From assembly GCA_964589775.1 (NCBI GenBank), contig CAZPUN010000012.1:1-32000 (forward strand): a stretch of 32,000 nt of DNA, in the 5' to 3' direction. Position 1 is the first letter of the stretch; each line of letters opens with the position of its first letter. The stretch comes from an uncultured archaeon (GTDB taxonomy: Archaea; Asgardarchaeota; Thorarchaeia; Thorarchaeales; CAZPUN01). Made by a program: the position numbers and the translations under genes. The notes below the pieces were generated by a model. The model was not told the DNA's origin and did not search any database. It saw nothing but the letters and a program-made list of their open reading frames with translations. Below, piece after piece: positions 6,070-20,957 of the stretch.

Positions 6070-7113
6070 ATGATTGAAATTGATGGCGCATTAGGTGAAG
6101 GTGGTGGCCAGATCTTACGAACAAGCATAGCATTATCAATAATTTCTGGAGAGCCTGTAAAAATATATAATATACGTAAGAACAGACCAAAAGGAGGCGG
6201 ATTAAGACCGCAACACATAACAGCAATAAATGCTCTTAAAGAAATTTCAAATTCTAGAACAGAAAATGTTTTTGAAGGGTCAAAAGAAATCACATTCTAT
6301 CCGGGCAAACCAAAACCGGGTAAGTACTCATTTAATATTGGAACAGCTGGAAGCATATCCTTAGTACTTCAAGCAATTTTACCAGCTATTTCTAAAATTG
6401 ATGGATTATTTGACATTCACCTAATTGGTGGCACAGATGTAGCATGGAGCCCACCGATTGATTACTTAGATCATGTGTTATTTCCTGTTCTGAGAAGAAT
6501 GGGAATAAGCATACAGTTAGAACTTAAAAAAAGGGGATATTATCCGAAAGGTGGAGGCGAGGTATTCATAAAAGTAAAAGGAACCTCGGAAATAAAGCAA
6601 ATTAATGCTATTTACCGACCAGATATTGTGTATATTAGCGGTATTTCACATGCTACGAACCTACCAAAACACATTGCAGAACGACAAGCAAAAAGTGCTA
6701 AAGAAATTTTAATGACTGCAGGATATACAAATGTAAACTTTAAGATAGAGCACAACATATCAAAAGAATTTAGAGGACTTGGCAGTGGCATTTGTATCTG
6801 GGCAAATTCTCAAGAATTAGTAGCAATTGGAGGAGATGCACTAGGCTCAAAAGGAAAACGAGCTGAAGTTGTCGGACAAGAAGCAGCTGAAAAAATAATC
6901 GAAAGCCTAGAAACAAAAATGGCATTTGACTATCATGTGGGAGATATGCTAATTCCATTTTTAGCACTCGCTAAAGACACGAGTAAAATTGGTGTCTCAA
7001 AAATAACAAATCATCTGACAACAAATATTACAATTGTAAGGAAACTACTAGGCACGGATATCTCACTTAAAAAAGAAAATGGTGCTACAATAATTATTGT
7101 CAAACGTAAATGA
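6070..7113 (+). CDS. rtcA: RNA 3'-terminal phosphate cyclase
   Basis: Motifs IDGALGEGGGQILRT, GLRPQH, TAGSISL, GGTDV, RGYYPKGGG and the catalytic His in HLTTN. The ATG lies 1 nt after the nadM stop. Confidence 0.95.
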   Translation: MIEIDGALGEGGGQILRTSIALSIISGEPVKIYNIRKNRPKGGGLRPQHITAINALKEISNSRTENVFEGSKEITFYPGKPKPGKYSFNIGTAGSISLVLQAILPAISKIDGLFDIHLIGGTDVAWSPPIDYLDHVLFPVLRRMGISIQLELKKRGYYPKGGGEVFIKVKGTSEIKQINAIYRPDIVYISGISHATNLPKHIAERQAKSAKEILMTAGYTNVNFKIEHNISKEFRGLGSGICIWANSQELVAIGGDALGSKGKRAEVVGQEAAEKIIESLETKMAFDYHVGDMLIPFLALAKDTSKIGVSKITNHLTTNITIVRKLLGTDISLKKENGATIIIVKRK

Positions 7114-7121
7114 GGAACAAT

Positions 7122-8138
7122 CTATTCTGAAACAATTTGCACTTGATCAAGTGCATATTTCATTAGCTCATTAACGCCATATCCTTTCTCAGCAATTATT
7201 TCAAATTTTATTTCGGGAATTTTTTCTTTGATTCGAGTTATTTGAATATCTGAAGCAAGATCTATTTTATTTAAAATAGGAATTATTGGAATAGTAGGGA
7301 ATGTTCGCCTTATCTCATTATAAAGATTAATTTGATCATCAATAGGAAATCCACAGGTTTCTGATGGATCTATTATATGTATGATCACGTTCGCAAGATA
7401 TTTTAATGCAACGACTGCTTGCTTTTCCACAACATTGCGATCATTAGGAGGACGATCTAATATACCGGGGGTATCTACAATCTGTATTCGTTTATCATTA
7501 ACAATAGTATGTCCTACAATTATTGATTTTGTTGTAAAAGGATAAAATGCAATTTCAGGTTCTGCAGTTGAAATTTGACGAACTAATGTAGACTTGCCAA
7601 CATTAGGACTTCCAGAACATACAATTGTTGGAACAAGAGGATCAATACTGGGAAGCTTCGATAAAATTGTTTTTGCTTCGATGAGTAATAATATTTTATC
7701 ATTAGTTTTTCTTAGGACAGATGCCATACGGCCTAGTGCGGCACGTCTTATTTTTGCAGCTTCTGCAGGGGTTTTCGCATATTTTACAGATTTACCATAT
7801 TTATTTCCGAGCCCAATAATGGCTTTCGCAGCCCCATTTACGGCACCTAAAGCTTGTTTTAATTTATCAAGACCGATTAAAATATCTGCTAGTTCAATAT
7901 AAAATGGATGTAAATGATCTAATGAAGGATAATATTTTACAATATCAAATAATTTGCTAGAAATAAGTTCAGATAAGTATGTAATCCGTTCGTATTCTTT
8001 AAATCTAGCAACACGAATAGCTTTAAGGCGGGGCCTTAATTTAAAGTTCATCTTACGTAATCTACCGATAGCATAATCCATAATTTGTTCGTAAGTCATT
8101 ATGGTTCCAATTCTAGCAAAGGGATTTGTAGAGTTCAT
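7122..8138 (-). CDS. nog1: Nog1-family (Obg-class) GTPase, ribosome biogenesis
   Basis: G1 GSPNVGKS, G2 YPFTT, G3 DTPGILDRP and G4 NKID. The N-terminal helical domain carries LHPFY. Confidence 0.92.
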   Translation of the reverse strand: MNSTNPFARIGTIMTYEQIMDYAIGRLRKMNFKLRPRLKAIRVARFKEYERITYLSELISSKLFDIVKYYPSLDHLHPFYIELADILIGLDKLKQALGAVNGAAKAIIGLGNKYGKSVKYAKTPAEAAKIRRAALGRMASVLRKTNDKILLLIEAKTILSKLPSIDPLVPTIVCSGSPNVGKSTLVRQISTAEPEIAFYPFTTKSIIVGHTIVNDKRIQIVDTPGILDRPPNDRNVVEKQAVVALKYLANVIIHIIDPSETCGFPIDDQINLYNEIRRTFPTIPIIPILNKIDLASDIQITRIKEKIPEIKFEIIAEKGYGVNELMKYALDQVQIVSE

Positions 8139-8222
8139 ACAGGCACCGCCTTTAATTATAAATACTTAGATGTAATATATACAATGTAATATCTCAAAAA
8201 TTATGTTATAAATGGATTGAAA

Positions 8223-9959
8223 ATGACACAAATACATAGTATAGCAAAAACATTTAGGGTTTTAAAAGAGATCTCTAAAGAAATAAAATCGATTGATATA
8301 AACACAATAATAGAGAATCCTATAAAAGTGAAAAAACAACTTAAGAAGTGGCAAATAGAACTAAAAGATTTGAAAGGACATATTATACATTCTACGATTA
8401 GTCCCTTTTCAATAAGAATGAAATATGATTCAGAGCAAAGAGATATAGATCAATTACGTCAAATAAGGAGTTTTGAAAGAGAAGAAACGCAACGTAATGC
8501 TGCAATAGATCAGTTAAAATCATCAATTATTGCGTTAAGAATTGCGGAAGGGATAATTGATGAATACGTCCCAATAATAAAAAGGATAAAAGATATTGAG
8601 AATTTCAAAAAATATGAAGCATATACTAAAAGTAGATTAGCACTAATTAAAAACTTGCCAATTGAAGGAGAATATTTACGAATTATTAGAGAACTATTAA
8701 ATAAAAATGAACGAAAATGCATACAAACAATACTACATTTACTTGCAGAAACTCAAAAAAATGAAACTCGCTTAGCAATAATAAAAGTTATCCATAGTAA
8801 AAACGGAACGCAGAAAATTTCAACTGTTGCCATAACAATTCCTAAGAATTTTAAACGAAAAATAGATAAAATAATTAAAGCAAACTTTGGCCAAAACGCG
8901 AGAGTTTTAAGAATTAGGTTTTATAAAACACAACGTGCACTCGTTCATAATAAATATTCTAGAACCGCATTAGCGATATCATATTGCAAAACATTTTCTG
9001 AAAAATACGAGCCAGATACTATCAAGCACATTCTAATTTGGGATATTATACGACATTATATATTAAATTCTAAGCGAACTCGCGAACGATATTCAGGTCA
9101 ATTTCCATATTTAGCAAGTGTTCCGACAGATGAAATGAAGAATTTATTGAAAGAACACCTTGGCAACACGAAAATCAAGATAATACCCTATGAACTAAAT
9201 ATTAATTCATTATTATTAAAGCTACACTTAGAAGAGAAATATGATGCCGATCTTCGGAAAATACATATTTTCAAGGATCCGACATTGGGTTTGATATCCA
9301 TATACTTAACGACGAACAATGATATTAACGAACTCTTAAAAGTATATCAAATAAGTAAGGATGAATTTAATGATACACTTTTTAAGCTGAGATTATTGGG
9401 ATTCCCAACATCATTTCTAAACATAGATTATGAAAAGCTACCTAAATTTGATATAAAGACATCACTAGCAAAACAAGTAATTAAAGCAATAAAAGATTAC
9501 GCTTCAAAAAAACATAGTGCGGATTATAAGAAAATTGAAAATTATGAAAGTGAGAATATATCTCAAATATATCAAATTATAGTAAACAATCGAGATGAAT
9601 TATTGGCAGCATTAGAAAATCAAAAAGACCATAGCTTTGAGAACATATATATAAGTATAAGACCAACAGTTGAAATTTTATTTGTTTTAGCAAATGAATT
9701 CCCAAACTTAAAACGTATTTATTGCCCAACAGGAAAATTTAAGGAATTATCAAAAGCTGTAATTCAAATTGCAAATCTTGCAAATATAAAAATTCTGCCA
9801 TTACATAAACCTAAAGGACGGAGCCAGAAGTATTCTGATGAGACTGTAAAAAAAATCAAAGAGCAGTATAACTCCGGAAAATCTGTATCGGAAATTTCCC
9901 AATCTTTTGATATTCCCATAAGAACAATTTATCATATAATAAAGAAAAAAAATACTTAA
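8223..9959 (+). CDS. DUF530-like protein fused to a C-terminal DUF1699-like domain and HTH
   Basis: Segments AIDQLKSSIIALRIA, RLALIKNLPIEGEYL, KTQRALVHNKY and WDIIRHY...RERYSGQFP resemble DUF530 as I recall it. The C-terminus IYISIRPT...PNLKRIYCP...KGRSQKY plus HTH (SVSEISQSFDIPIRTIYHII) resembles DUF1699 proteins. Alternative TTG start at 8217. Confidence 0.65.
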   Translation: MTQIHSIAKTFRVLKEISKEIKSIDINTIIENPIKVKKQLKKWQIELKDLKGHIIHSTISPFSIRMKYDSEQRDIDQLRQIRSFEREETQRNAAIDQLKSSIIALRIAEGIIDEYVPIIKRIKDIENFKKYEAYTKSRLALIKNLPIEGEYLRIIRELLNKNERKCIQTILHLLAETQKNETRLAIIKVIHSKNGTQKISTVAITIPKNFKRKIDKIIKANFGQNARVLRIRFYKTQRALVHNKYSRTALAISYCKTFSEKYEPDTIKHILIWDIIRHYILNSKRTRERYSGQFPYLASVPTDEMKNLLKEHLGNTKIKIIPYELNINSLLLKLHLEEKYDADLRKIHIFKDPTLGLISIYLTTNNDINELLKVYQISKDEFNDTLFKLRLLGFPTSFLNIDYEKLPKFDIKTSLAKQVIKAIKDYASKKHSADYKKIENYESENISQIYQIIVNNRDELLAALENQKDHSFENIYISIRPTVEILFVLANEFPNLKRIYCPTGKFKELSKAVIQIANLANIKILPLHKPKGRSQKYSDETVKKIKEQYNSGKSVSEISQSFDIPIRTIYHIIKKKNT

Positions 9960-10031
9960 TTTTTCTAAAAAGTCTTAATAATGCAAATTAAATAATAAAT
10001 GTAACATATTTTATTTGGAGAGTGAAAAGGA

Positions 10032-13000
10032 GTGAAGGAAACACTATCAAAAATGCTTTCTGAAAAATTAGGCTTAACTAATGAAGAAATAGACACATAT
10101 ATTTGGACGCTTGTAATGGGATACACAACGGCGGGTGATTTAGTAGCATATACCGGCATGCCCCTTGAAAAAGTAGATCAAGCACTAAATTCGTTAATTG
10201 ATAAAAATCTCATATACAAAATTGAAGGGATAATTGCACGGTATAGAGCACAACCTCCATTTAAGGGATTTTCAGATATTTTAACAGAATTTGGTAATAA
10301 AATGAACACGATTGAGAAAGAACTTACAAAAGAAGTTGAAACATACAGAGAAAATTTGAATTCACTAATGCAGGACCTTAAACAGAATATTAATGAAATA
10401 ACAGATAATGCAATCCAAACACAAAAGGAAAAATCTGATGCAGCAATTGAACAAATTAAAAAACATATTGAAGATAAGAAAAATGAAGTTGAAAATATAA
10501 ACGAGGAAACAATAGAGAAGATTTCACTTACGATCTCAAATAATGATGAATACATACAAAATACTATAAACACATTCAAAGAAACAATAATTCAAAATTT
10601 CGAATCATTGAAAGAAAAAGGAAATGAAACATTATCAACAATAAATCAGGAAATAAAAACTGAGCTAAATAACTTTGCAGAAGATATAAATCAGAAATCT
10701 ACAGAATTAAAAACATCAATTAATGATAATTTACATTCAATAAGTTCAGATACTGCAGCCTTTATTACATCTATACAAAACGATTTTAAATCAGAATTAG
10801 ATATGTTTCATAATACATCGAAAGAACATATTATAAAAATGAATACACACCTTAGCAAAAATATTCAAGATGAACAAAATAAACTAACCTCAAAAATATC
10901 AACCTCAACTGACACGTTAAAGAATTTGTTGACACAATATAACCAAGCAATTAATAATGAGATAACTAAATTCAAGGAAACAGTATCTGAAAATATTGGC
11001 ACATTCAAACAAATGAATACAGATAAAATAAAAACCCTCCTTGAGACTAGTTCATCATTAATACAAAATGGAAAAGAAAATATAAATCAACAAAAAGAGA
11101 CACAGATCGAAAAAATTGCGGTGGCATCTAAGAATGCGTCAGAAGCCGCATCAGTTTTGTCTAGAAGTTTAATTGAAAAAACTCAAGCAACCATTACAGA
11201 TACGAAATCTAATTTTGAAGAATCATTAAATGATTCTAAAACAAAAGAAATTGCACTAGTAAAGATGTTTCAAGCTACACTTGGAACCACATTTGATGAA
11301 TTGTATACAATATCCTCAGAAAAAACTGAAGAACAAAAAGGGATTCTTACAGAATTAATTAACAACACAACACAAACATCTCAAACTACAATTGAAAATA
11401 TTGCCAATAATTTAACACAAAAATCAGGAGAGTTATCAGAAGATCTCAGAAGTAAAATGGAAATAACAATATCATCAGAAAAAGAAAAAATCGAACTATC
11501 CTCACGAATGATATCAGAACAAATAGAAAAGATGAAAGAAACAATTCAAAAAATTGTTGCGGAAACTGTTGAAACAATTATGCAAAACATTTCAATACAA
11601 TTTAATGATATGGTGGCACAATTAACTTCATTCGGAGATTCTACAAATAATGTGATCTCGGAATACATCACTCAAATGAATAAGAGTATAGCAGATGAAA
11701 AAGACAACGGAATTATACAGATCAAAGAAATAACAAAACAACAGACTGAAACATTGAATACATCAATAGAAACATACATAGCGAAGACTAAAGAAACCTT
11801 AACAAATACGAAGGAAGACTTAAACTCGAAGATTATAGAATTAGAATCAGATATAGACACATTTGTCTCAAATAGAATTCAACAACAAAACAAGACTTTT
11901 GATAATTATTTGAATACAGTCAATACCGAAATTACAGAATTTCGTAATAATATGCATCAAGAAATAAACAATTTAGAAACTACATTAAATGCAAACACCA
12001 ATGATTTATGTAGTACACTTACAGAAACACTTGAGAGTATAGATAATACCATAACTGAAACACATAATCAACTTATTGATGAGACAAATAATATTGCTAC
12101 AAAACTTGAATCGGATACAGAATCAGTAGAAAATACAATGAAAACGCAATTGTCACAAAATACAGAAAACGCAATTGAAGAAATTAGTTCTACCCATTCT
12201 GAGGAAATTGAATTTGTAAATTCATTTGCAAATAATATGCAAAACATAGTTTCAGATATTTCAGATGAAATAACAACATCTTTGACTTCAACCGTAAATT
12301 CAACAAAAGATAATGTAGACAATAAAGCCAATGAATCACAAGAAAAGCTAAATACGCATATTGAAAATTCAAAAGCTACGATTTCAGAAACGATTGATCA
12401 AGGAATTGTAAGAATTACAGATACAATCAATGCATTAGACAACACTTTAGATCAAAATATAACAACATACAAACAAGTAATTTCCAATACATTAGATAGT
12501 GGAATTGAGAAAACAACAGAAGTATCAAATAATACAATAACAAACCTGAGAGAAGCATTAACTAACATAAGTCAGGATAGTAGAACAGGAATACAAAACA
12601 TGAATAAGAATGTACAATTAACATTGACGACCTCAAAAGAATTCATACTAAATCAAATAAGTACTCAAATTTCTGTATTCGGAGAATTGTCTAATGAATT
12701 AAAAGAAAAGTATCTTACGGCAGTCAATGAAGCAAATAGTGGATTATTACATATTTTCTCAGACGAAGCACTAGGAAAAATCACTGCAAATATGAGAGAA
12801 GCCGTGAATAACTCAAATGAACTATCAAAATTACTAAAGACAATTTGGGATGAAGTAGCTGATATTAAACCAGTTCATACCAAGAAAACATGGACAGTCG
12901 TAACACGCAGTGGCATAATGGCACACATAAAGGATATGATCAAAAGAGCCAAATCACATATGCTTCTTGTTGTTCCTACAATAGCAGATGTTCCAGTAGA

Positions 13001-13307
13001 TTTAATTCTAAAAATGAAGAAATCTGTTAGAACAGAAATAGTATTTGATGTAACTCAAAAAGATAAGAAAACTGCATTACAATTAGTACAACAAGGAAAC
13101 ATAAGAGTCAGAGATAGAAAAGAACGCGACTATTACAGTTGTGTTATTGATGCGGAAGAAGTACTATTAGGTCCTGCAGCCCAAAAAGATGAAGAAAACA
13201 TGGCGATCGTCTCAGAAGATGAAAATATAATTAAACTAGTTATGCAACATATGGGCCCAATATGGCAAGCACAGGCAAAGAATCTGAAAGAAGCAGACCT
13301 ACAATAA
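10032..13307 (+). CDS. TrmB-like wHTH, very long hendecad coiled coil, and C-terminal TrmB/PLD-like domain protein
   Basis: The N-terminus (LGLTNEEIDTY...TAGDL...ALNSLIDKNLI...YRAQPP) matches a TrmB wHTH. Residues 77-946 contain no proline and show 3-4-4 hydrophobic spacing. The C-terminus (TWTV...IKDMIKRAKSHMLLVVP...CVIDAEEVLLG...W) is like the TrmB effector domain. GGAG elements precede the GTG start. Confidence 0.75.
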   Translation: MKETLSKMLSEKLGLTNEEIDTYIWTLVMGYTTAGDLVAYTGMPLEKVDQALNSLIDKNLIYKIEGIIARYRAQPPFKGFSDILTEFGNKMNTIEKELTKEVETYRENLNSLMQDLKQNINEITDNAIQTQKEKSDAAIEQIKKHIEDKKNEVENINEETIEKISLTISNNDEYIQNTINTFKETIIQNFESLKEKGNETLSTINQEIKTELNNFAEDINQKSTELKTSINDNLHSISSDTAAFITSIQNDFKSELDMFHNTSKEHIIKMNTHLSKNIQDEQNKLTSKISTSTDTLKNLLTQYNQAINNEITKFKETVSENIGTFKQMNTDKIKTLLETSSSLIQNGKENINQQKETQIEKIAVASKNASEAASVLSRSLIEKTQATITDTKSNFEESLNDSKTKEIALVKMFQATLGTTFDELYTISSEKTEEQKGILTELINNTTQTSQTTIENIANNLTQKSGELSEDLRSKMEITISSEKEKIELSSRMISEQIEKMKETIQKIVAETVETIMQNISIQFNDMVAQLTSFGDSTNNVISEYITQMNKSIADEKDNGIIQIKEITKQQTETLNTSIETYIAKTKETLTNTKEDLNSKIIELESDIDTFVSNRIQQQNKTFDNYLNTVNTEITEFRNNMHQEINNLETTLNANTNDLCSTLTETLESIDNTITETHNQLIDETNNIATKLESDTESVENTMKTQLSQNTENAIEEISSTHSEEIEFVNSFANNMQNIVSDISDEITTSLTSTVNSTKDNVDNKANESQEKLNTHIENSKATISETIDQGIVRITDTINALDNTLDQNITTYKQVISNTLDSGIEKTTEVSNNTITNLREALTNISQDSRTGIQNMNKNVQLTLTTSKEFILNQISTQISVFGELSNELKEKYLTAVNEANSGLLHIFSDEALGKITANMREAVNNSNELSKLLKTIWDEVADIKPVHTKKTWTVVTRSGIMAHIKDMIKRAKSHMLLVVPTIADVPVDLILKMKKSVRTEIVFDVTQKDKKTALQLVQQGNIRVRDRKERDYYSCVIDAEEVLLGPAAQKDEENMAIVSEDENIIKLVMQHMGPIWQAQAKNLKEADLQ

Positions 13308-13476: not shown

Positions 13477-13491
13477 CAAAACATTATAAAA
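13477..13491 (+). promoter_or_regulatory. BRE/TATA promoter of putative C/D sRNA
   Basis: CAAAACA followed by TTATAAAA (13484-13491), about 25-30 nt upstream of the sRNA terminal stem. Confidence 0.55.
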
Positions 13492-13513
13492 ACTATTTTT
13501 GAAAATATCAGGT

Positions 13514-13594
13514 AGATGACGAGTGATGAAATAAAGACCCCTATGAGAATTTAAAATTCGATGATTAAGATCTTGAGTATTGAACTCGTCATCT
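13514..13594 (+). ncRNA. C/D-box 2'-O-methylation guide sRNA (predicted target Cm34 of tRNA-Leu CAA)
   Basis: 11-bp terminal stem AGATGACGAGT/ACTCGTCATCT. C box GTGATGA (13523-29), D' ATGA (13543-46), C' ATGATTA (13561-67), D TTGA (13580-83). Guides of 13 and 12 nt. Followed by a short T run. Confidence 0.8.
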
Positions 13595-13695
13595 TTTAAA
13601 AATATTTTCGGATATCTCTCTGTTATTTGTATATTAAAACATACAATTTACATAAAACTTATTAGAGATAAAAGAAAGTATTAATGGGATAAAAA

Positions 13696-14907
13696 GTGTC
13701 GACCAATTTTCTTGAAGAAGAGCTACATAGAAAATCGGTATTCAGACCGAAAGGCGAGCGGTACTTGGATATTGAATATGTACCCCAAACAATGCCACAT
13801 AGAGAAGAACATTTGAGACAATTAGCTCGAATTTTTAAATCAGTAATAGAGTCCCCAAGTAATACTAGTCAGAAAGTACTAATACATGGAAATACAGGAA
13901 CTGGAAAAACTGCAGTTACTAAATATTTTGGGGCAATGATAGAAGATTCTGCAAGAAAACGGTCTTTACGAATTGATTATAAACATATTAATTGTAGAAG
14001 TAAAAAAACAGAATATTTAGTTCTTTTAACGATATTAAGACATTATGATAAGAATATTCCAAAACGTGGCTTTTCACCTTCTGAATTATTACATATGCTA
14101 ATAGATATATTAGAAGCAGAAGATCGACATTTGGTACTTACGTTAGATGAAGTTGATTATTTAGTGAGGACAAGGGGTCCAGATTTAATTTACGATCTTA
14201 CACGTTTAACTGATGATCGTCTAAATGCGCCACAAAGGCTATCCTTAATTACAATAGTAAGAGATACTACGTTTCTAAATGTCTTAGATTCAAGTACATT
14301 AAGTACATTTCAAAAGAATGTTATGAAATTAGAAAAATATACAGCATCACAGCTTGAAGATATTTTAAACTTAAGGGTTCAATACGCATTTAGGGACAAT
14401 ACAGTTCCAAAAGATACAATCTCATTAATTGCAGATATTGCATCAGATATGGGTGATGCACGCTATGCCATAGAATTACTATGGAAAGCGGGAAAATATG
14501 CAGATTCAAATAACGCTGAACGCGTATATCCCGAATTTGTAAGACTTGCAAAATCCGAAATACATCCAGAAATTAGAAAAGAGATCTTAGATGCACTTTC
14601 AGACTCACAAAGAGTTTTACTATTATCGATCGCAAGGCAATTAATAAACAAAAAATCAGCATACATAACAATTGGCGAATTAGAAGAAATGTATCAAATA
14701 GTTAGTGAAGAATACTCTATAAAGCCACGAGCCCATACTCAGGTATGGACACAAATTCAAGAGTTAGAACACCATGGGATAATATCTACAAAAATATCAG
14801 GCCAAGGATATAGAGGAAAAACAACATTAATTGGACTACCTGAAATTCCTGCAGAACAACTAGAACGTATACTAACAAAATATATGAAATCAGGGGAATA
14901 TATATGA
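13696..14907 (+). CDS. cdc6: Orc1/Cdc6 replication initiator family protein (Orc1-2-like)
   Basis: Motifs YVPQTMPHREE, Walker A GNTGTGKT, INC, Walker B LDEVD, YTASQL and GDARYAI, plus a C-terminal winged helix (GYRGKTT). Confidence 0.95.
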   Translation: MSTNFLEEELHRKSVFRPKGERYLDIEYVPQTMPHREEHLRQLARIFKSVIESPSNTSQKVLIHGNTGTGKTAVTKYFGAMIEDSARKRSLRIDYKHINCRSKKTEYLVLLTILRHYDKNIPKRGFSPSELLHMLIDILEAEDRHLVLTLDEVDYLVRTRGPDLIYDLTRLTDDRLNAPQRLSLITIVRDTTFLNVLDSSTLSTFQKNVMKLEKYTASQLEDILNLRVQYAFRDNTVPKDTISLIADIASDMGDARYAIELLWKAGKYADSNNAERVYPEFVRLAKSEIHPEIRKEILDALSDSQRVLLLSIARQLINKKSAYITIGELEEMYQIVSEEYSIKPRAHTQVWTQIQELEHHGIISTKISGQGYRGKTTLIGLPEIPAEQLERILTKYMKSGEYI

Positions 14908-15185
14908 GCAAAGTAGAAACTACAAAAATACCGATAGAAGAAGTATTATCATCACGAGGAAGAGTTAAAATTCTTTCAGAACTAGCAAAAGCGGGTGAAC
15001 TTAATATTTCAGAATTAGCAAAAAGAGCAGGATTAAATCATGCGACGGCAAAGCAGCATCTTAAAATTTTAGTAAGATCTGGAATCGTAATTGAAAAAAC
15101 ATTTGGACGAATTCGGATCTATAAATTTAATAGTGATGACCTACGAGGACGCGCATTAAAGAAACTTTTTGAATCATGGGAATAG
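14904..15185 (+). CDS. ArsR-family wHTH transcriptional regulator
   Basis: SSRGRVKIL...ELNISELAKRAGLNHATAKQHL...FGRIRIY. ATGA overlap with the cdc6 stop. Confidence 0.85.
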   Translation: MSKVETTKIPIEEVLSSRGRVKILSELAKAGELNISELAKRAGLNHATAKQHLKILVRSGIVIEKTFGRIRIYKFNSDDLRGRALKKLFESWE

Positions 15186-15220
15186 ATAAGTTAAAATAAA
15201 AAAGAATTATTCATGGAACC

Positions 15221-16021
15221 ATGAATGTTGCCGTCAAAGTGTTTTACATAGGGACAAAATATCATGGCTCACAAATGCAACCGGGTTTGAGGACCATAGA
15301 AGGGGAATTACAAAAGGCTGTAAATAAATATAATGCAGAAAATTATGGTAAAGTAAAATTTTCAGGACGAACAGATAAAGGGGTGCACAGCTTAGGACAA
15401 ATTGTAGTTTTACCAATTAAAGGCGAGATGTTTTATCCTGAAAAATTAAATACTGAGCTTCCAGAAGACATAATTGTATGGGCATGGACAAAAGTACCGC
15501 CTAATTTTAATCCACGAAGAGACGTAAATTCAAGAACATATCGATATTTTTATCCAACATGGAATGTAAGTTTAGATTTTGAAAAAATGCGAATAGCTGC
15601 AAATGAATTCATAGGAGAACATAATTTTTCACATTTTGCAAAACCAAGAAACGATCAAAATCCGGTAACTATAATACACAATTTAGAGATTTTTCAAAAT
15701 AACACATATATTGAATTCAAAATACGTGGACGAAATTTTTTATGGATGATGGTTAGAAAGATAATAAGAGCACTAATTCAGGTAGGCTCAAATGAACTTA
15801 ATATTGAGACTTTACGGGACATCATAAATTTAAAATCAAAGCCACAGAAGGGTTTTCAGCCAGTACCAGCCAATGGATTAATTCTATGGGACATAGAAAC
15901 AAAGTTTAATTTTACGATCAATAAAAAAGGAATTAAACGCATAAAACAACTAGTAAATTCATATATATTTAATTTAGAACAAGGCTTAAACATTATGAAA
16001 AAAATTAATGACTTTATGTAA
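15221..16021 (+). CDS. truA: tRNA pseudouridine(38-40) synthase
   Basis: Motifs YxGxxYHGSQxQP, GRTDKGVH, RTYRY, GEHNF, FLWMMVR and GLIL. Confidence 0.95.
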   Translation: MNVAVKVFYIGTKYHGSQMQPGLRTIEGELQKAVNKYNAENYGKVKFSGRTDKGVHSLGQIVVLPIKGEMFYPEKLNTELPEDIIVWAWTKVPPNFNPRRDVNSRTYRYFYPTWNVSLDFEKMRIAANEFIGEHNFSHFAKPRNDQNPVTIIHNLEIFQNNTYIEFKIRGRNFLWMMVRKIIRALIQVGSNELNIETLRDIINLKSKPQKGFQPVPANGLILWDIETKFNFTINKKGIKRIKQLVNSYIFNLEQGLNIMKKINDFM

Positions 16022-17204
16022 TAGTTATTTGTTTTTCATCGACATTTAGCCAATCGGCTATTTGCTTTTTGGGAATTTTGGTAAGGATTATTTTAAATAG
16101 CGCATAAAGAGAATTTACTTCATTTAATGACAAATGTAGCTTATCAGCAATTAATTGCTTATTTAACAAATCCTTGTCACTTTTTCTTCTTCCAATATAT
16201 ACTAATAATGGCCATTCGGATTCCGTAATGATTTTTTTATGAGGATATTTATTAGATCGCATTAATGCCAAAACAAGGAATTCATAAATATATTTTAATA
16301 AATTCCAATTCATATTTTCGGAAATATTTTGTAAATATAGATCTGCTAGGGATATGTTTTTAATCACTACAAGCGCATCTTCTAATGACATGCCATTTAG
16401 CAAAGAGTTTTCATAGAGCAATAATAGAGTAGTATCAGGATCTGTATCAAGATTTAGAGCTTTAAATTCAGAAATTTCTTTGAGCGATAGTAAATTCTTA
16501 ATTGCATCCTCTAAAGTTAATTGTTGCTCTCTGAATGTATCACGATCAACAAAAGAATCATGTATAATTAGAGACTGTAAATCATTAATTGCAGCTCTCA
16601 AATCCCCATTTGATCTATTAGCAATATTTTCTAAAATTTCATCAGAAACATCGATATGCTCCGCATTACATATTCTCTTTAAAATTTCAACAACATTTGA
16701 TTTTGAAAGAGGCGCTAATTCAATAATTAATGAGAACTTTCCTAAGAATTTTGTTTGCGAACGATCTAATTCGTTTGCAGTAAAAATTATAGGATGTTGC
16801 GTTTTTTCAACTAATTCTTTAAGTGATTTAAAACCACCACGGTCAAGAGAACCAGATAACCCATCAATTTCATCTAGCAGAATAACGCGATGTTCATTCC
16901 AGAAAGATTGAGTTAAAGCAGATTCAAGAACTGTAGATAGTATAGACTCCTTATTTCTTGTATCACTTGCATTAAATTCAACTACTTCATAACCAAGCGA
17001 CTTTGCAGCAACATAGACCATTGACGTCTTTCCAATTCCAGGAGGCCCAAATATAACTAAAGCTTTTTGTGCCTTTTTAGGAGACCATGATTTTATCCAT
17101 CTAATTAATTGCGATAGCTTGTCTTTATGCCCTATAAATTCACCAGGATTGCTAGGTCTATATTTTTCAACCCATGGAATTGAACCAGAATTCATGTATA
17201 TCAT
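16014..17204 (-). CDS. rfcL: Replication factor C large subunit
   Basis: Motifs PWVEKYRP, GPPGIGKT, EFNASD, LLDEIDG and GDLRAAINDLQ. Confidence 0.93.
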   Translation of the reverse strand: MIYMNSGSIPWVEKYRPSNPGEFIGHKDKLSQLIRWIKSWSPKKAQKALVIFGPPGIGKTSMVYVAAKSLGYEVVEFNASDTRNKESILSTVLESALTQSFWNEHRVILLDEIDGLSGSLDRGGFKSLKELVEKTQHPIIFTANELDRSQTKFLGKFSLIIELAPLSKSNVVEILKRICNAEHIDVSDEILENIANRSNGDLRAAINDLQSLIIHDSFVDRDTFREQQLTLEDAIKNLLSLKEISEFKALNLDTDPDTTLLLLYENSLLNGMSLEDALVVIKNISLADLYLQNISENMNWNLLKYIYEFLVLALMRSNKYPHKKIITESEWPLLVYIGRRKSDKDLLNKQLIADKLHLSLNEVNSLYALFKIILTKIPKKQIADWLNVDEKQITIT

Positions 17205-18154
17205 CTCAGTTGAGCCATAAATGCGATTAATGAAGAGATCTGTATTTTACCAGATGCACCTTGACTTAATTGAAAATCAATGTTTCCAATTTCATGTAAT
17301 ATCTTAATTTTTTTAGATTCTTCAATATCAAGTTGTTTTACTGCAAGATGTATTTGTTTTAACAAATCCTCCGGAGAAATACCCTGCCCAATAATTAGAT
17401 CGTCTATAATTTGTAATGCAGATTCAAATTCACCATGAATTGATGTGTTTACCAATTTTTCAATATCTTTTGGTGATGCGCGACCTGCGACCTTATATAC
17501 ATTTTCAGCTGTGATATTAGAATCTAAAGCAGCTGCAGATTGAAGTAAATTAATTGCCACCCTCATATCCCCTTCACAAACATATAGAATTGCACCAAGT
17601 CCATCTTTTGTTAGATTTATATTTTCTTTTTTAGCAATGTAGTTTAATCTTTCCGAAATAGATTCATCAGATAATGCATTAAATCTGAAAATAGCACATC
17701 TGCTTTGTATGGGAGGTATTATTTTCGATGAATAATTACAAATAAGTATGAATCTGCAAGTCGAAGAATATTCTTCCATTGTTCGTCTTAAGGCGTGCTG
17801 CGCATCAGAAGTTAAATGATCTGCTTCATCAAGGACTAATATTTTAAATGGTACATCACCAACAGGAAGCGCCCTAGCAAACTTTTTAATATTGTTTCGT
17901 ACAACGCCAATTCCACGCTCATCACTTGCATTTAATTCCATAAAATTATATTGATATGTTTCCTCACCATATAGCTCACGCGCGATACACAAAGCTGTAG
18001 TAGTTTTGCTTGTACCGGGGGGTCCAGAAAACAAACAATGCGGAAGATCTTTTTGCTCCACCATTTTCTTTAGTTGTTTGACTATTGCATCTTGCCCAAC
18101 AATTTCATCAAGTTGTTTAGGGCGGTATTTCTCAGTCCAGATAGTGGATTCCAT
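17201..18154 (-). CDS. rfcS: Replication factor C small subunit
   Basis: Motifs WTEKYRP, GPPGTSKT, ELNASDERG, LDEAD, AQHALRRTME, IQSRC and GDMR. No intein. Confidence 0.96.
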   Translation of the reverse strand: MESTIWTEKYRPKQLDEIVGQDAIVKQLKKMVEQKDLPHCLFSGPPGTSKTTTALCIARELYGEETYQYNFMELNASDERGIGVVRNNIKKFARALPVGDVPFKILVLDEADHLTSDAQHALRRTMEEYSSTCRFILICNYSSKIIPPIQSRCAIFRFNALSDESISERLNYIAKKENINLTKDGLGAILYVCEGDMRVAINLLQSAAALDSNITAENVYKVAGRASPKDIEKLVNTSIHGEFESALQIIDDLIIGQGISPEDLLKQIHLAVKQLDIEESKKIKILHEIGNIDFQLSQGASGKIQISSLIAFMAQLR

Positions 18155-18242
18155 TTTTCAGCAGCCTCATCAAATAAAATATTATTCAATAAGAGAAAGT
18201 ATATCATTGAATTTAAATTTAATCAAGTCTATATTTAGAATC

Positions 18243-18809
18243 ATGAATAATAATTTAAACACCAACATTACAAAACAATTGAAACGAATATGGTTTAAAA
18301 TATCACATGAGAAAATTCCAGTTATATTCAAACAACCAATTGATGAAATTAATTTAGCAGGAATAAAAATAGGACCATATCAAAAGGGAAGCGAAGTAAA
18401 TTTAGAATGGTGGATAACACAACATCTGATATCAGAAGAAATTGTAGAGCCAAAAATATCAATTTTACAATTTTTATCAGATTTAGAAAAAGAAAATTTC
18501 AAAGAGATTAATAATTCAAGACTACAAGAAGTTGATAAGGATCTATACTTTGCAACAACGTTATATCGTAAAATCATAATTGAGCGCTCAAGAAAAAATC
18601 CAGAGCCTATGATTATGCACCAATATGAAAAGATTGCATCATTACTTTTCGACATTTCCTTAAAGCGCGCAGCAAAATTATTAAAAATAGCTCACGCAGG
18701 AGAGCCAACAAGAGAACAAATGAACCGAATGACAGAAGAAGAAAAAACAATTGTGAAAATTTTATCAACTGTATTATCAACTTGGAAGAATTTCTTAGAA
18801 GAAACTTGA
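18243..18809 (+). CDS. GINS complex subunit Gins23
   Basis: N-terminal beta-rich B domain (IGPYQKGSEVNLEWW), then a helical A domain (KRAAKLLK, MTEEEK). Directly upstream of mcm. The start was trimmed to avoid overlapping rfcS. Confidence 0.78.
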   Translation: MNNNLNTNITKQLKRIWFKISHEKIPVIFKQPIDEINLAGIKIGPYQKGSEVNLEWWITQHLISEEIVEPKISILQFLSDLEKENFKEINNSRLQEVDKDLYFATTLYRKIIIERSRKNPEPMIMHQYEKIASLLFDISLKRAAKLLKIAHAGEPTREQMNRMTEEEKTIVKILSTVLSTWKNFLEET

Positions 18810-18885
18810 TTTTCCAATTATGATATCTTTATATAAAAAAGTTAAGTATCTTAATAATGATAGCCAAACAGGTGTAATATGAAAA

Positions 18886-20946
18886 ATGGAGGACTTTGAG
18901 TTTAATTTTGATCCTGAAGAACGCTTTGTAAACTTTCTCAAAATGTGTAGAGATGAGCGCGGAGAATACATATACAGAAATAAAATTGCAAAGCTCCCAA
19001 CCAGTGGAGAAATTTCATTATATGTAGATTTCGATGACCTATTACGATTTGATCCGGAGCTAGCTCGAAAGACAATTTCTGAACCGGATAGTATGTTGAG
19101 AGTTGGAAGTAGCGCTCTTAGAGAAGTATTAAAGATACATGATGAAGAGTATGCAGAAAATACTGCAAATCTTCATTTACGATTTAGAAATGTTGAAACA
19201 TATGTTCCCTTACGCCAAATAAGAGCAAACCACATTGGAAAACTAATTCGTGTTGAAGGTATCTTAATGAGAGCATCTCAAGTCAAACCTTTACTTGTTA
19301 ATGGTGTTTTTCAATGTGGACATTGTGGTGAGAAAATTAGAATCCCCCAAGAAGAGGGTCGCTATACTCCACCAATGGTCTGCCCTAATCCTGCATGTAG
19401 GAAAAAGGGTCCTTTTAAGCTAATAATAGAAGAATCTGAATTTATTGATTGGCAGAAAATTAGAATTCAAGAGACTCCCGATGAACTGCCACCAGGACAA
19501 ATGCCACGTTCATTAGATGTAATATTTACTGATGATTTAGTCGACACATGTAGACCTGGAGATTTAGTAAGAATAGTAGGAATATTAAGGTCTGCACCTG
19601 ATTTTACAGGCGCACGAAAATTAGCTACTTTTCATGTATTTATTGAGGCTAATGGAGTAGATGTCTCAGAGAAAGAATTCGAACACTTACAGATATCAGA
19701 AGAAGATGAAAAACAAATTATAGAATTATCAAAGGATCCTTTTGTACATACAAAAATAACTCAATCATTAGCACCTTCAATTCATGGAAATGAAAAAATT
19801 AAGGAAGCAGTCACATTAATGTTATTTGGAGGAGTACCAAAAGTACTTCCAGATGGAACAAAAATTCGAGGAAAATCAAATATACTATTGGTAGGAGACC
19901 CGGGTACTGGAAAAAGCCAACTACTAAAATATGTTGCCACCTTAGCCACAAGAGGGTTGTATACTTCAGGAAAGGGTACAAGTGCAGCGGGACTTACTGC
20001 AGCTGTAGTTCATGATAGTGAAACTGGAGCTATGACTTTAGAAGCTGGTGCATTAGTCCTTGCAGATCAAGGAGTAGCATGTATTGATGAATTTGATAAA
20101 ATGGAAGCAAGTGATAGAAGCGCCATACATGAAGCCATGGAACAACATACAGTAAGTATAGCAAAAGCAGGAATTGTCGCAACACTAAATGCCAGGACAT
20201 CAATTCTTGCAGCAGCAAATCCAATAATGGGGCGATACAATCCAAATCTGACAGTTGCAGAAAATCTAAAATTGCCAGTCACAATTCTTTCACGTTTTGA
20301 TTTAATCTTTATAATGATCGATAAGCCGGATACTAAAAAGGACCGCGAACTTGCACGCCATATTCTCGGATTACATAAAACAAAAGGTAAAGAATTGCCT
20401 CCTGTATTACCTCCTGAATTCTTAAGAAAATATATTGCATACGCAACCAAAAATGTAAAACCAGTGATTTCAGCAGAAGCCGCTGAAGAAATTGAAAATT
20501 TCTACATTAAAATGCGTTCATCAGGAGAAGCAGAAGGCTCACCAGTACCGATCACTGCGAGACAATTAGAAGCAGTTATCAGACTTGCGGAAGCACGCGC
20601 AAGAATGGCACTCAGAGATGAGGTTACTAGAGAAGATGCGAGAGCAGTAATTGATTTAGTAACTGAATCGCTAAAAGCAGTTGGAATAGATCCGGAAACA
20701 GGACAATTTGATATTGATACAATATATACAGGAAGAAGCAAGTCCCAACGCGACAAAACACAACAAATTGTCGAAATTATAGAACAATTACAACTCGAGC
20801 TGGATGGGCCAGTTCCAGTTGATCAAATTATCGATAAGGCAGTAAATGAAGGCATAGATAAAGAGTTCGTAATTCGAAGCATAGATCAGCTAAAACTTGA
20901 TGGTATGTTTTATGAACCCCGTCCGGGATATATCAGTAAAGCATAG
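18886..20946 (+). CDS. mcm: MCM replicative helicase
   Basis: Zn finger CGHC...CPNPAC, GQMPR, Walker A GDPGTGKSQ, LEAGALVLAD, IDEFDKM, SRFD and ITARQLE. No intein. Confidence 0.98.
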   Translation: MEDFEFNFDPEERFVNFLKMCRDERGEYIYRNKIAKLPTSGEISLYVDFDDLLRFDPELARKTISEPDSMLRVGSSALREVLKIHDEEYAENTANLHLRFRNVETYVPLRQIRANHIGKLIRVEGILMRASQVKPLLVNGVFQCGHCGEKIRIPQEEGRYTPPMVCPNPACRKKGPFKLIIEESEFIDWQKIRIQETPDELPPGQMPRSLDVIFTDDLVDTCRPGDLVRIVGILRSAPDFTGARKLATFHVFIEANGVDVSEKEFEHLQISEEDEKQIIELSKDPFVHTKITQSLAPSIHGNEKIKEAVTLMLFGGVPKVLPDGTKIRGKSNILLVGDPGTGKSQLLKYVATLATRGLYTSGKGTSAAGLTAAVVHDSETGAMTLEAGALVLADQGVACIDEFDKMEASDRSAIHEAMEQHTVSIAKAGIVATLNARTSILAAANPIMGRYNPNLTVAENLKLPVTILSRFDLIFIMIDKPDTKKDRELARHILGLHKTKGKELPPVLPPEFLRKYIAYATKNVKPVISAEAAEEIENFYIKMRSSGEAEGSPVPITARQLEAVIRLAEARARMALRDEVTREDARAVIDLVTESLKAVGIDPETGQFDIDTIYTGRSKSQRDKTQQIVEIIEQLQLELDGPVPVDQIIDKAVNEGIDKEFVIRSIDQLKLDGMFYEPRPGYISKA

Positions 20947-20957
20947 GTGACATTATT

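Follow-up and report, generated by a model that had tools for sequence, protein, structure and literature searches.

A TrmBL2-like protein family of Asgard archaea with a long hendecad helix of conserved length

TrmBL2 (TK0471 / PF0496; PDB entries 5box, 5bpd, 5bpi, and 5bqt), a nucleoid-associated protein of the Thermococcales, consists of a winged helix, an amphipathic dimerization helix, and a PLD-like C-terminal domain devoid of a sugar-binding subdomain. The 264-amino-acid (aa) protein forms tetramers and covers DNA, giving a stiff filament of 7 to 11 nm in thickness (PMC4877046). For TrmB of P. furiosus (3qph and 2f5t), a sugar-sensing transcription factor, an antiparallel coiled-coil dimer has been described, in which domains are swapped between the chains, the helix serving as hinge (PMC4158304). 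Here, we analyzed a protein with the same domain order as TrmBL2, encoded in a 32,000-nucleotide (nt) stretch of an Asgard MAG (the window), which may originate from a hydrothermal vent. The gene (10032..13307, + strand) comprises 1,091 codons plus a stop codon and starts with GTG at 10032, an in-frame ATG at 10053 being a possible alternative start. The pI of the whole protein (1,091 aa) is 4.8. Existing annotations of family members read only "hypothetical" or "helix-turn-helix domain-containing," and we found no description of this architecture in the literature on Asgard TrmB-like, coiled-coil, hendecad, apolipoprotein, or nucleoid proteins. The Asgard-wide spread of this TrmBL2-like family and the fixed length and mirror-symmetric indels and conservation of its hendecad rods are newly described here.

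Terminal domains and the helix that joins them

A sequence-only reading of the window had assigned a TrmB-type winged helix-turn-helix to the N terminus of the protein and a TrmB-effector/PLD-like domain without an HKD motif to its C terminus. We confirmed that both termini are TrmB/TrmBL2-like. The winged helix (aa 9 to 76; 10056..10259, + strand) scored 41.1 bits with Pfam PF01978 (TrmB; cutoff, 25.6 bits), and the best PDB sequence match of the N-terminal part was TrmB of P. furiosus (3qph; E = 1e-5). The wing residue Arg70 and Pro76 are invariant in the orthologs. At the other end lies a TrmBL2-type alpha/beta domain with a PLD-like fold (aa ∼950 to 1091; 12870..13304, + strand), in which aa 954 to 1073 (nt 12891 to 13250) matched model positions 3 to 123 of 233 in PF11495 (Regulator_TrmB) at 23.6 bits (cutoff, 22.2 bits). 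A 45-sequence profile of the C-terminal domain retrieved TrmBL2 (5box/5bpd; E = 8e-4) over chain residues 78 to 261 of 263. The AF2 model of this domain had a pLDDT of 93 and, in a Foldseek search, retrieved TrmBL2 chains at ranks 1 to 8 (E = 2e-11), followed by TrmB and then by PLD-fold nucleases (NucT, Nuc, and Zucchini). The HxK(x)4D active-site motif of PLD occurs nowhere in the protein. The assertion that ATPase, transmembrane helix, and signal peptide are lacking also stood up, since neither a Walker A motif nor an ATPase family (Pfam and NCBIfam) was detected in the protein, its N terminus does not resemble a signal peptide, and no segment is convincingly transmembrane, the highest-scoring Kyte-Doolittle window of 19 residues falling within the folded C-terminal domain.

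The two domains are joined by a helix of 870 residues (aa 77 to 946; 10260..12869, + strand) that contains no proline, as had been noted from the sequence; prolines occur only at 44, 75, 76, 947, and beyond. Fourier analysis of the residues ILMFVWY in this rod gave a single peak at T = 3.67, with a power of 118 versus 0.86 at T = 3.5, whereas the maximum power in 1,000 shuffled controls averaged 6.9 and reached 15.2 at most. The periodicity is thus 11/3, as anticipated, and not heptad. When laid out in rows of 11, all 79 repeats of the a-d-e-h hendecad were in register, with hydrophobic residues occupying 78% of the a, 43% of the d, 43% of the e, and 62% of the h positions, and the phase track showed zero slips from ∼71 to ∼885. 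An AF2 model of the full-length monomer, of low confidence (pLDDT, 62; pTM, 0.30) and used for secondary structure only, was helical between 77 and 943 apart from five breaks of low confidence. The middle of the protein is one continuous hendecad helix. Ser, Thr, Asn, and Gly are abundant in the rod, the net charge of which is about −57; rods of orthologs carry 25 to 58 glycines per 863 residues, a large number for a rigid coiled coil. The 3.67 peak was found in nearly all long homologs of the family, and in the whole 2.16-Mb genome only this open reading frame (ORF) and one paralog contain rods with such a signal. The strongest heptad signal in the genome belongs to two other ORFs of 1,144 and 1,216 aa. 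The tail of ZorA (Zorya), matched in NCBIfam at 35 bits against a cutoff of 250 and 19.5 against 190, was rejected as a likeness at the level of periodicity only. TrmB-family matches of the N-terminal part reach into the beginning of the rod, the last ∼40 residues of which align with the TrmBL2 helix, in agreement with the proposal that the rod is an expanded TrmB-family dimerization helix.

Gene neighborhood does not help toward function. Orc1 was found near orthologs in only 2 of 15 loci, and in a different orientation, so synteny with Orc1/Cdc6 was rejected, and DUF530 was not conserved beside the orthologs. Recurrent neighbors were housekeeping genes (amino-acid kinase, a small winged helix-turn-helix protein, class I tRNA synthetase, URO-D, HDAC, and PolX). 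A search of the ESM Atlas with the upstream partner of the paralog returned no usable match.

Rod length and the placement of length changes

We found matches to the C-terminal domain in 250 of the 251 Asgard genomes searched, mostly several per genome; cultured Asgard species also carry family members. The distance between the anchors Pro76 and Trp939 was 863 residues in 12 of 20 distinct orthologs. Compared without gaps, the rod of the window's protein was only 10 to 12% identical to the rods of this 863-class (z = 1.0 to 1.8 versus in-register shifts), and the Thor rods were 19 to 21% identical among themselves (z = 7 to 12). Global pairwise alignment of the window's rod to orthologs introduced many compensating gaps, which are meaningless at 11% identity, and was set aside. 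In the paralog, the anchor distance was 1,077 in the 12 measurable genomes of this order and 1,076 to 1,078 in other Asgard classes. These comparisons show a rod length that is frozen within each subfamily while its sequence drifts to noise. Across the family, anchor distances ranged from 81 to 1,684, and short forms were recovered by an exhaustive homolog search but missed by a word-index search. Since every residue class modulo 11 was represented, the idea that linkers would grow in steps of 11 was rejected as a general rule: length is instead fixed per subfamily, and only some changes within subfamilies (−22) are multiples of 11.

We then considered where length changes fall, taking their placement as confident when the alignment reached at least 25% identity. 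Ten rods of the 863-class aligned without any gap. Orthologs have lost residues solely in the central region (aa 445 to 558; 11364..11705, + strand), around a putative two-fold point near aa 507 (nt 11544 to 11558). This region contains neither Gly nor Pro, its repeat is unbroken, and it is the best conserved part of the orthologous rods (34 to 37% versus 22 to 27% elsewhere). One deletion of 114 residues removes 445 to 558 and is centered on 502, compared with 507 for the rod; another removes 22 residues at 518, and a third removes 7 residues at 491, the center of an already shortened rod. All three (114 being 10 × 11 + 4) roughly keep the helical phase. In the 517-class, an insertion of 84 residues at 88 is paired with one of 84 at 429 (88 + 429 = 517), pairs of +40/+40 and +44/+44 occur at the same two sites, and a +4 insertion lies at 258, the exact center. 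The 871-class combines +8 at 184 with +7 at 691, and the 442-class carries +10 or +12 at 224 (center, 221), where helical phase is not preserved. All confidently placed changes were central or formed equal mirrored pairs, except for two deletions of one residue each in a single 1539-class protein.

Conservation provided a separate view of the same symmetry. We compared per-column conservation with its mirror image after removing the register effect, testing 530 sums (S). The correlation was best at the geometric center: the orthologs peaked at S = 860 to 863 (r = 0.22 unsmoothed and 0.39 with 3-residue smoothing), and the paralog family gave an independent peak at S = 1,078 to 1,082, close to its geometric value of 1,077. 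The size of the peak alone is only ∼1.8 standard deviations above block-shuffled maxima, and the weight of the test comes from the position of the peak. Neither hydrophobic core strength nor charge gave a mirror correlation at the rod center, and the 517-class set, with 8 sequences that are ∼75% identical, was too alike to inform.

The coiled-coil contacts of TrmB, Phe81/Ile91' and Phe84/Leu88' with their converses (PMC4158304), have residue numbers that sum to a constant, so the dimer helix of TrmB is antiparallel. Together with the central or mirrored indels and the mirror-symmetric conservation, this shows, by evolutionary and homology-based reasoning, that the two halves of the rod would pair antiparallel about its midpoint. 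An off-centered indel would shift all pairs beyond it, which would explain the frozen length. Only length changes that are central, in mirrored pairs, or of whole hendecads would then survive. A ruler function is possible, yet it is unnecessary to explain the conserved length.

Possible arrangements of the rod

We tentatively favor, with a little less than even confidence, an antiparallel bipolar rod of two chains, ∼125 nm long with a TrmBL2-family head at each end. In this member of the TrmBL2 family, the amphipathic helix that links the winged helix to the C-terminal domain would have expanded from ∼35 to 40 to ∼860 residues. Two antiparallel chains would pair in register around a two-fold point close to residue 507 and form a two-stranded rod, straight or with a slight right-handed twist, of ∼125 nm (860 × 0.148 nm). 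At each end, the winged helix of one chain would sit beside the PLD-like domain of the other, as in half a TrmB/TrmBL2 dimer, and such a strut would hold two identical binding sites at a fixed distance without ATP. If the ligand is DNA, as homology suggests, the product would be a long-range chromatin cross-link or spacer. From sequence patterns, we infer that pairing occurs between chains rather than within one, and the oligomeric state likewise.

The alternative that deserves most attention, and that we consider possible although less probable, is that the helix turns at ∼507 and its halves pair within one chain, forming an antiparallel arm of ∼63 nm. At the base, the winged helix would then lie next to the PLD-like domain of the same chain, as in an un-swapped TrmBL2 protomer, with the conserved center as the tip; the bases could still polymerize on DNA as TrmBL2 does, with arms radiating out. 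All the evidence for antiparallel pairing, from the central and mirrored indels to the mirror conservation, fits both arrangements equally well, and the high conservation of the center would suit a tip. Long natural antiparallel coiled coils are mostly single-chain hairpins (SMC, Rad50, and colicin Ia), and a hairpin escapes the entropy cost of dimerization, a point against two chains. Elsewhere in the family, the 517-class has a conserved Gly-Phe-Phe-Trp-x-Gly-Lys4 motif at its exact center that resembles a hairpin tip, the paralog has glycines just past its center, and the 10- and 12-residue indels at the center of 442-class rods break the helical phase. The domain swap of the TrmB dimer also makes an un-swapped form structurally reasonable (PMC4158304). 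However, residues 495 to 520 contain no Gly, Pro, or loop-like residue in the window's protein and 17 orthologs, hendecad power and phase are unchanged across the center, and between 499 and 515 no position is conserved in 10 or more of 12 sequences. At the new junction left by the 114-residue deletion, Gly and Pro are likewise missing, and the AF2 monomer, though a low-confidence model, shows an intact helix from 482 to 589 with no turn at the center. These features argue for the two-chain rod.

The remaining explanations account less well for the symmetry. A surface-binding amphipathic 11-mer helix of the apolipoprotein, perilipin, synuclein, or LEA type, disordered alone and folding on a membrane or lipid surface to tether the TrmB-like domains there, is suggested by a match to PF01442 (101.1 bits over 7 stretches against a cutoff of 90; 99 bits for the paralog), by basic residues enriched beside the hydrophobic stripe with acidic ones on the far face, and by the Ser-, Thr-, Asn-, and Gly-rich composition. 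We nonetheless regard it as quite improbable. The stripe is narrow (∼2.2 to 2.3 hydrophobic residues per 11), the strongly negative charge is ill suited to this role, only 6% of windows score above 0.68 with a HeliQuest-type discriminant, proline punctuation is absent, self-similarity at lag 22 is not above that at other multiples of 11, the N terminus is not signal peptide-like, and an exact length with mirrored paired insertions would be senseless for a surface-coating helix. We read the PF01442 match as a mimic arising from shared 11-mer periodicity and composition, and the apolipoprotein-like lipid-binding bundle offered as an alternative by the sequence-only reading is unlikely on the same grounds. 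For a compact multihelix bundle, globular or spectrin-like, with close termini and no long rod, one may cite the breaks at 219 to 225, 399 to 402, 478 to 481, 590 to 594, and 795 to 801 in the AF2 monomer, but they have a pLDDT of 34 to 50 in a model with a low pTM, delimit unequal segments (142, 173, 75, 108, 200, 101, and 39 residues), and never coincide with Gly, Pro, or a phase slip. A repeat that stays phase coherent over 800 residues around a single mirror center would be unexpected for multiple hairpins, making such a bundle very improbable. The least probable arrangement is a parallel in-register homodimer or homotrimer with the winged helices at one end and the C-terminal domains ∼125 nm away, although an a-d-e-h hendecad is compatible with parallel right-handed coiled coils, of which tetrabrachion is an example. 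Indels anywhere would keep parallel pairing, yet those placed are central or mirrored, bar the two in the 1539-class, while conservation is mirror symmetric and the homologous TrmB helix pairs antiparallel. The parallel dimer implied by the sequence-only reading, with both winged helices at one end, is contradicted by this same evidence.

DNA as the ligand of the two-chain rod, and any cellular role, would follow from homology to the TrmB family. DNA binding by the winged helix of this subfamily is doubtful, because the domain is acidic (net charge, −2 to −8; pI, 4.1 to 4.9), its presumed recognition helix is rich in Glu and Asp, and Tyr50 and Asp51 are replaced. In the alignment to 3qph, these two positions correspond to Asp49 and Gln50 in the window's protein and to variable, mostly acidic residues in the orthologs; in TrmB, they are DNA-recognition residues (Table 1 in PMC4158304). 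We give only a low probability to ATP-independent bipolar struts of fixed length that space or cross-link chromatin, or link it to another structure, at defined distances. Were this so, there would be two strut sizes in this order, ∼125 nm and ∼160 nm, and other sizes in other Asgard lineages, amounting to a nucleoid scaffold that is restricted to the archaea most closely related to eukaryotes and has no equivalent in the known nucleoid-associated proteins. Little is understood of the cell architecture of Asgard archaea, to which eukaryotes are more closely related than to any other known group; the near-invariant rod length of each subfamily, tens to hundreds of nanometers, would span a substantial part of a small cell. 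The family shows a well-studied small chromatin protein turned into a very long regular hendecad helix and offers a clean natural example of antiparallel pairing constraining indel evolution. Its members pass the Pfam Apolipoprotein threshold and thus risk being mislabeled in annotation pipelines.

Comparison with known systems

TrmBL2 is the best profile and fold match of the C-terminal part, up to the end of the chain. Unlike TrmBL2, in which the helix has ∼35 to 40 residues and the two winged helices occupy adjacent major grooves, the protein has a regular hendecad rod of ∼860 residues and an acidic winged helix without the Tyr50/Asp51 pair. The tetramer, the filament, and nonspecific DNA binding are features of TrmBL2; for the window's protein, the charge of the winged helix calls for caution on such properties. 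TrmB is the best PDB match for the N-terminal part, from the winged helix into the beginning of the rod, but differs in helix length and in having a second, sugar-binding subdomain, absent here as reflected in the partial match to PF11495.

Other long helical proteins share single traits with the rod. The tetrabrachion stalk and the peripheral stalk of A/V-ATPases have the same 11-residue repeat and a-d-e-h core, and nearly straight helices are expected in all of them. These stalks, which do not exceed a few hundred residues, are built as parallel bundles or as heterodimers and are not known to carry end domains of DNA-binding type; in contrast, the rod would pair antiparallel and runs for ∼800 residues without a slip. 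The arms of SMC, Rad50, and MukB are long antiparallel coils whose halves must match in length, the same logic as that of the mirrored indels, but they are heptad based and carry ATPase heads and a hinge or zinc hook, whereas the window's protein is hendecad based and has no ATPase motif. Apolipoproteins A-I, A-IV, and E (PF01442) share the 11/3 periodicity and the basic residues beside an apolar stripe; unlike them, the rod has neither proline-punctuated 22-mers nor a secretion signal, and it combines a narrow stripe and an acidic chain with frozen length and mirror symmetry. The transverse filaments of the synaptonemal complex (SYCP1/Zip1) consist of parallel, heptad-based dimers that meet head to head. 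Here the likeness is one of analogy only, not homology: both may be ATP-independent rods of ∼100 nm with binding ends that space chromatin elements.

The rod protein and its genomic setting

The rod gene (window 10032-13307, + strand) begins with GTG, with an in-frame ATG at 10053, and encodes a protein of 1,091 residues, P0001. It belongs to a 2.16-Mb assembly of 64 contigs, and the sole full DNA match among public sequencing runs came from a hydrothermal-vent metagenome. The window is low in G+C (28-33% around the rod gene) and contains archaeal information-processing genes: a MutS-like protein, RNA cyclase, a NOG1-type GTPase, a DUF530 protein, the rod gene and tRNA-Gly(CCC), followed by a dense replication cluster (13696-23156) composed of Orc1/Cdc6, a small ArsR-type wHTH protein, TruA, RFC large and small, MCM and a Hel308-type helicase. 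This neighborhood was uninformative for the rod gene. The DUF530 gene (8217-9959, + strand, 580 aa) lies directly upstream in the same orientation and was not seen beside rod-gene orthologues; the C terminus of its product bears a weak, sub-threshold likeness to DUF1699 and to the HTH of the CRISPR repeat-binding protein Cbp1. Between tRNA-Gly and orc1/cdc6, an interrupted inverted repeat (13490-13608) encloses ∼60 AT-rich bases. Its arms (13490-13524 and 13584-13608) contain the perfect 11-mers AGATGACGAGT and ACTCGTCATCT, respectively, and no Rfam family matched there. The two arms may represent origin recognition boxes, which would place a replication origin ∼200 bp downstream of the rod gene.

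The sequence-only reading had placed a TrmB-type winged helix at the N terminus of P0001 and a PLD-like TrmB-effector domain lacking an HKD motif at its C terminus, and both assignments were borne out. Residues 9 to 76 matched the TrmB winged helix (PF01978, 41 bits against a cutoff of 25.6), with Pyrococcus furiosus TrmB as the closest PDB relative (E = 1e-5). The last 160 residues exceeded the Pfam threshold for Regulator_TrmB, with coverage of the first half of the model only. When a profile built from 45 homologous C termini was used, the top solved relative was TrmBL2, aligned up to the end of its 263-residue chain. Furthermore, the AlphaFold2 (AF2) model of residues 900 to 1091 was confident (pLDDT of 93), and its fold matches were, in order, eight TrmBL2 chains, TrmB, and PLD-fold nucleases. 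Scanning of the whole protein revealed neither an HxK....D nor a Walker A motif, and no segment was convincing as a membrane span, in keeping with the earlier statement that ATPase and transmembrane elements are absent.

Residues 77 to 946 contain no proline, and the 11-residue repeats proposed for this stretch of ∼870 residues stay in register through 79 copies. Arranged in rows of eleven, position a is hydrophobic in 78% of cases, d and e in 43% each and h in 62%. As anticipated, the period is 3.67 and not 3.5: the hydrophobic residues gave a single spectral line at 3.67 residues with a power of 118, against 0.9 at the heptad period and a maximum of 15 over 1,000 shuffles. The local hendecad phase runs along the rod without any jump. 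Across the whole genome, such a signal was found only in the rod ORF and in one paralogue. The strongest heptad (3.5) periodicity belongs to two other ORFs, on contig 64 (50300-53734, − strand, 1,144 aa) and contig 57 (42823-46473, + strand, 1,216 aa), which probably encode SMC- or Rad50-type proteins. The rod is strongly acidic (net charge of −57) and would therefore not be expected to bind along DNA or anionic membranes.

An Asgard family with a second giant member

When the C-terminal domain was searched exhaustively with HMMER, 195 clusters were obtained at E < 0.001, ranging from fragments to proteins of 1,907 aa, with the domain nearly always C-terminal. The strongest hydrophobic period was 3.65 to 3.69 in nearly all long members. 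All members with a named source came from Asgard MAGs (labeled Thor-, Loki-/Prometh-, Hel-, Frey-, Sigyn-, Baldr-, Ran- or Heimdall-), and a contig scan with conserved peptide patterns matched only Asgard MAGs or archaeal MAGs without a lineage label. Atlas look-alikes from outside Asgard were all short (240 to 320 aa). In group searches, which covered genomes within the Asgard phylum, the domain profile matched 250 of 251 genomes with a completeness of ≥80%, typically two to seven times per genome. Members are currently annotated as hypothetical or HTH domain-containing proteins, and a literature search found no published description of the architecture. The family is real, is found widely among Asgard archaea and, within the reach of that search, is undescribed. 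Annotation holds a trap: both P0001 and the paralogue pass the Pfam cutoff for Apolipoprotein A1/A4/E (101 and 99 bits versus 90) because of their 11-residue periodicity.

The giant paralogue of the window's genome (contig 17, 37011-40907, i.e., 7011-10907 of the fetched locus L050, − strand) has 1,298 aa and a linker of 1,077 residues, and it shares the architecture of the rod protein, with a TrmB wHTH, the Apolipoprotein match and a TrmBL2-like C terminus. Its neighborhood recurs in 14/14 loci of the same order, the outermost genes missing where the fetched stretch or the contig ends. Upstream are genes for a 168-aa protein, a 399-aa protein, D-aminoacyl-tRNA deacylase, a 228-aa coiled coil and a Cys-rich 273-aa protein; a convergent GNAT gene, a gene for a 145-aa protein and ThiF follow. 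The 168-, 399-, 228-, 273- and 145-aa proteins are labeled unknown. The stop of the Cys-rich gene overlaps the paralogue start, and neither the 273-aa nor the 228-aa protein had a Pfam match; these two may be partners of the paralogue.

Frozen linker lengths and evidence for antiparallel pairing

We measured the linker from the invariant Pro that ends the winged helix (Pro76 in P0001) to the invariant Trp that precedes the C-terminal domain (Trp939). Across the family it spans 81 to 1,684 residues, and no class modulo 11 is favored, so the suggested steps of 11 were not found. Within subfamilies, which we name by linker length, it hardly varies. Among 20 distinct orthologues of the Thor-type order, 12, including P0001, have a linker of exactly 863 residues, the others having 862, 862, 861, 841, 834, 749, 749 and 748. 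The Thor rods align with one another without gaps at 19 to 21% identity (z of 7 to 12 versus whole-hendecad shifts). The P0001 rod is only 10 to 12% identical to them, no better than a shifted alignment, and yet has exactly 863 residues. The paralogue linker is 1,077 in all 12 genomes measured within this order and 1,076 to 1,078 in other Asgard classes.

The sites of the rare length changes account for this constancy through antiparallel pairing. Every change among the orthologues lies centrally in the rod: a deletion of 114 residues (445-558) is centered on 502, against a rod center of 507; another removes 22 residues at 518; and a third removes 7 at 491 from a rod that had already lost 22 residues and whose center then lies at 493 to 496. 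In the Loki-type 517-class, one species carries +84 at 88 and +84 at 429 (88 + 429 = 517), two others carry insertions of +40/+40 and +44/+44 at this pair of positions, and unpaired +4 insertions fall at 258, the exact center. A member of the 871-class has +8 at 184 with +7 at 691, and the 442-class has +10 or +12 at 224. We also corrected per-column conservation for the register effect and, taking each possible center in turn, correlated the profile with its own reflection. The best sums were 860, 863 and 862 among 530 tried for the orthologues (geometric value, 863) and 1078 for the paralogue family (geometric value, 1077). These peaks are modest, block shuffles attaining similar maxima ∼1 time in 20, and their weight lies in their central position in two independent families, not in their height. 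Packing of a against h' and d against e' corresponds to sums congruent to 4 (orthologues) and 2 (paralogues) modulo 11, and the expected values, 862 and 1080, fall within both peak clusters. Paralogue rods (L051 to L061) have two invariant glycines, at rod positions 104 and 971 (sum, 1075; rod length, 1077), which would fit antiparallel pairing with a small residue facing a small residue across the halves.

This evolutionary evidence indicates that the two halves of the rod pair antiparallel. A parallel coiled coil leaves the central or paired indels unexplained, and we give it little weight; the same applies to a compact bundle, for which the sole support was helix breaks in a low-confidence AF2 model. 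The apolipoprotein-like alternative of the sequence-only reading is unlikely: what is shared is the amphipathic period of 11 residues, and this alternative is contradicted above all by the mirrored indels, as well as by the missing proline punctuation, the lack of extra self-similarity at lag 22, the narrow apolar stripe, the rod charge and a low lipid-binding discriminant.

One chain or two, and the ligand of the heads

Pairing about the midpoint fits a two-chain rod of ∼125 nm and a one-chain hairpin, a fold-back arm of ∼63 nm, equally well. The hairpin is the usual form of long antiparallel coiled coils, the center is the best-conserved stretch of the rod, and the 517-class has a Gly-flanked Phe-Phe-Trp and poly-Lys motif exactly there. 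However, P0001 and 17 orthologues have neither Gly nor Pro at the center, which looks like ordinary coiled coil; no residue at 499 to 515 is strongly conserved in the window's subfamily; the hendecad signal and phase continue through the center unchanged; all three central deletions nearly keep the helical phase; and the AF2 monomer, a low-confidence model, shows no turn there. We regard the hairpin as possible but less likely and tentatively prefer the two-chain antiparallel rod, to which we grant nearly even chances. The 517-class motif (L066 to L077, rod positions 250 to 275) comprises Lys-Lys-Gly, Phe-Phe-Trp-x-Gly and Lys4-Tyr-Lys-Ala-Arg. Together these residues make a greasy, basic patch suggestive of a central binding site or of the tip of a hairpin, and the window's subfamily lacks it.

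Homology hints, weakly for the window's subfamily, at DNA as the ligand of the heads, and the rod protein might thus act as a DNA bridge. In this subfamily the winged helix has a net charge of −2 to −8, Glu and Asp abound in the counterpart of the recognition helix, and Tyr50/Asp51 of TrmB are replaced, while Arg70 (wing) and Thr33 are invariant; winged helices of other subfamilies are neutral or basic.

The proposal that the rod is an expanded TrmB-family dimerization helix holds. In TrmBL2, this helix promotes dimerization and positions the two winged helices at neighboring major grooves (PMC4877046). The TrmB dimer is described as domain-swapped, the helix serving as a hinge, and its coiled coil is antiparallel, with contacts Phe81/Ile91' and Phe84/Leu88' (PMC4158304), in agreement with the pairing that we infer for the rod.
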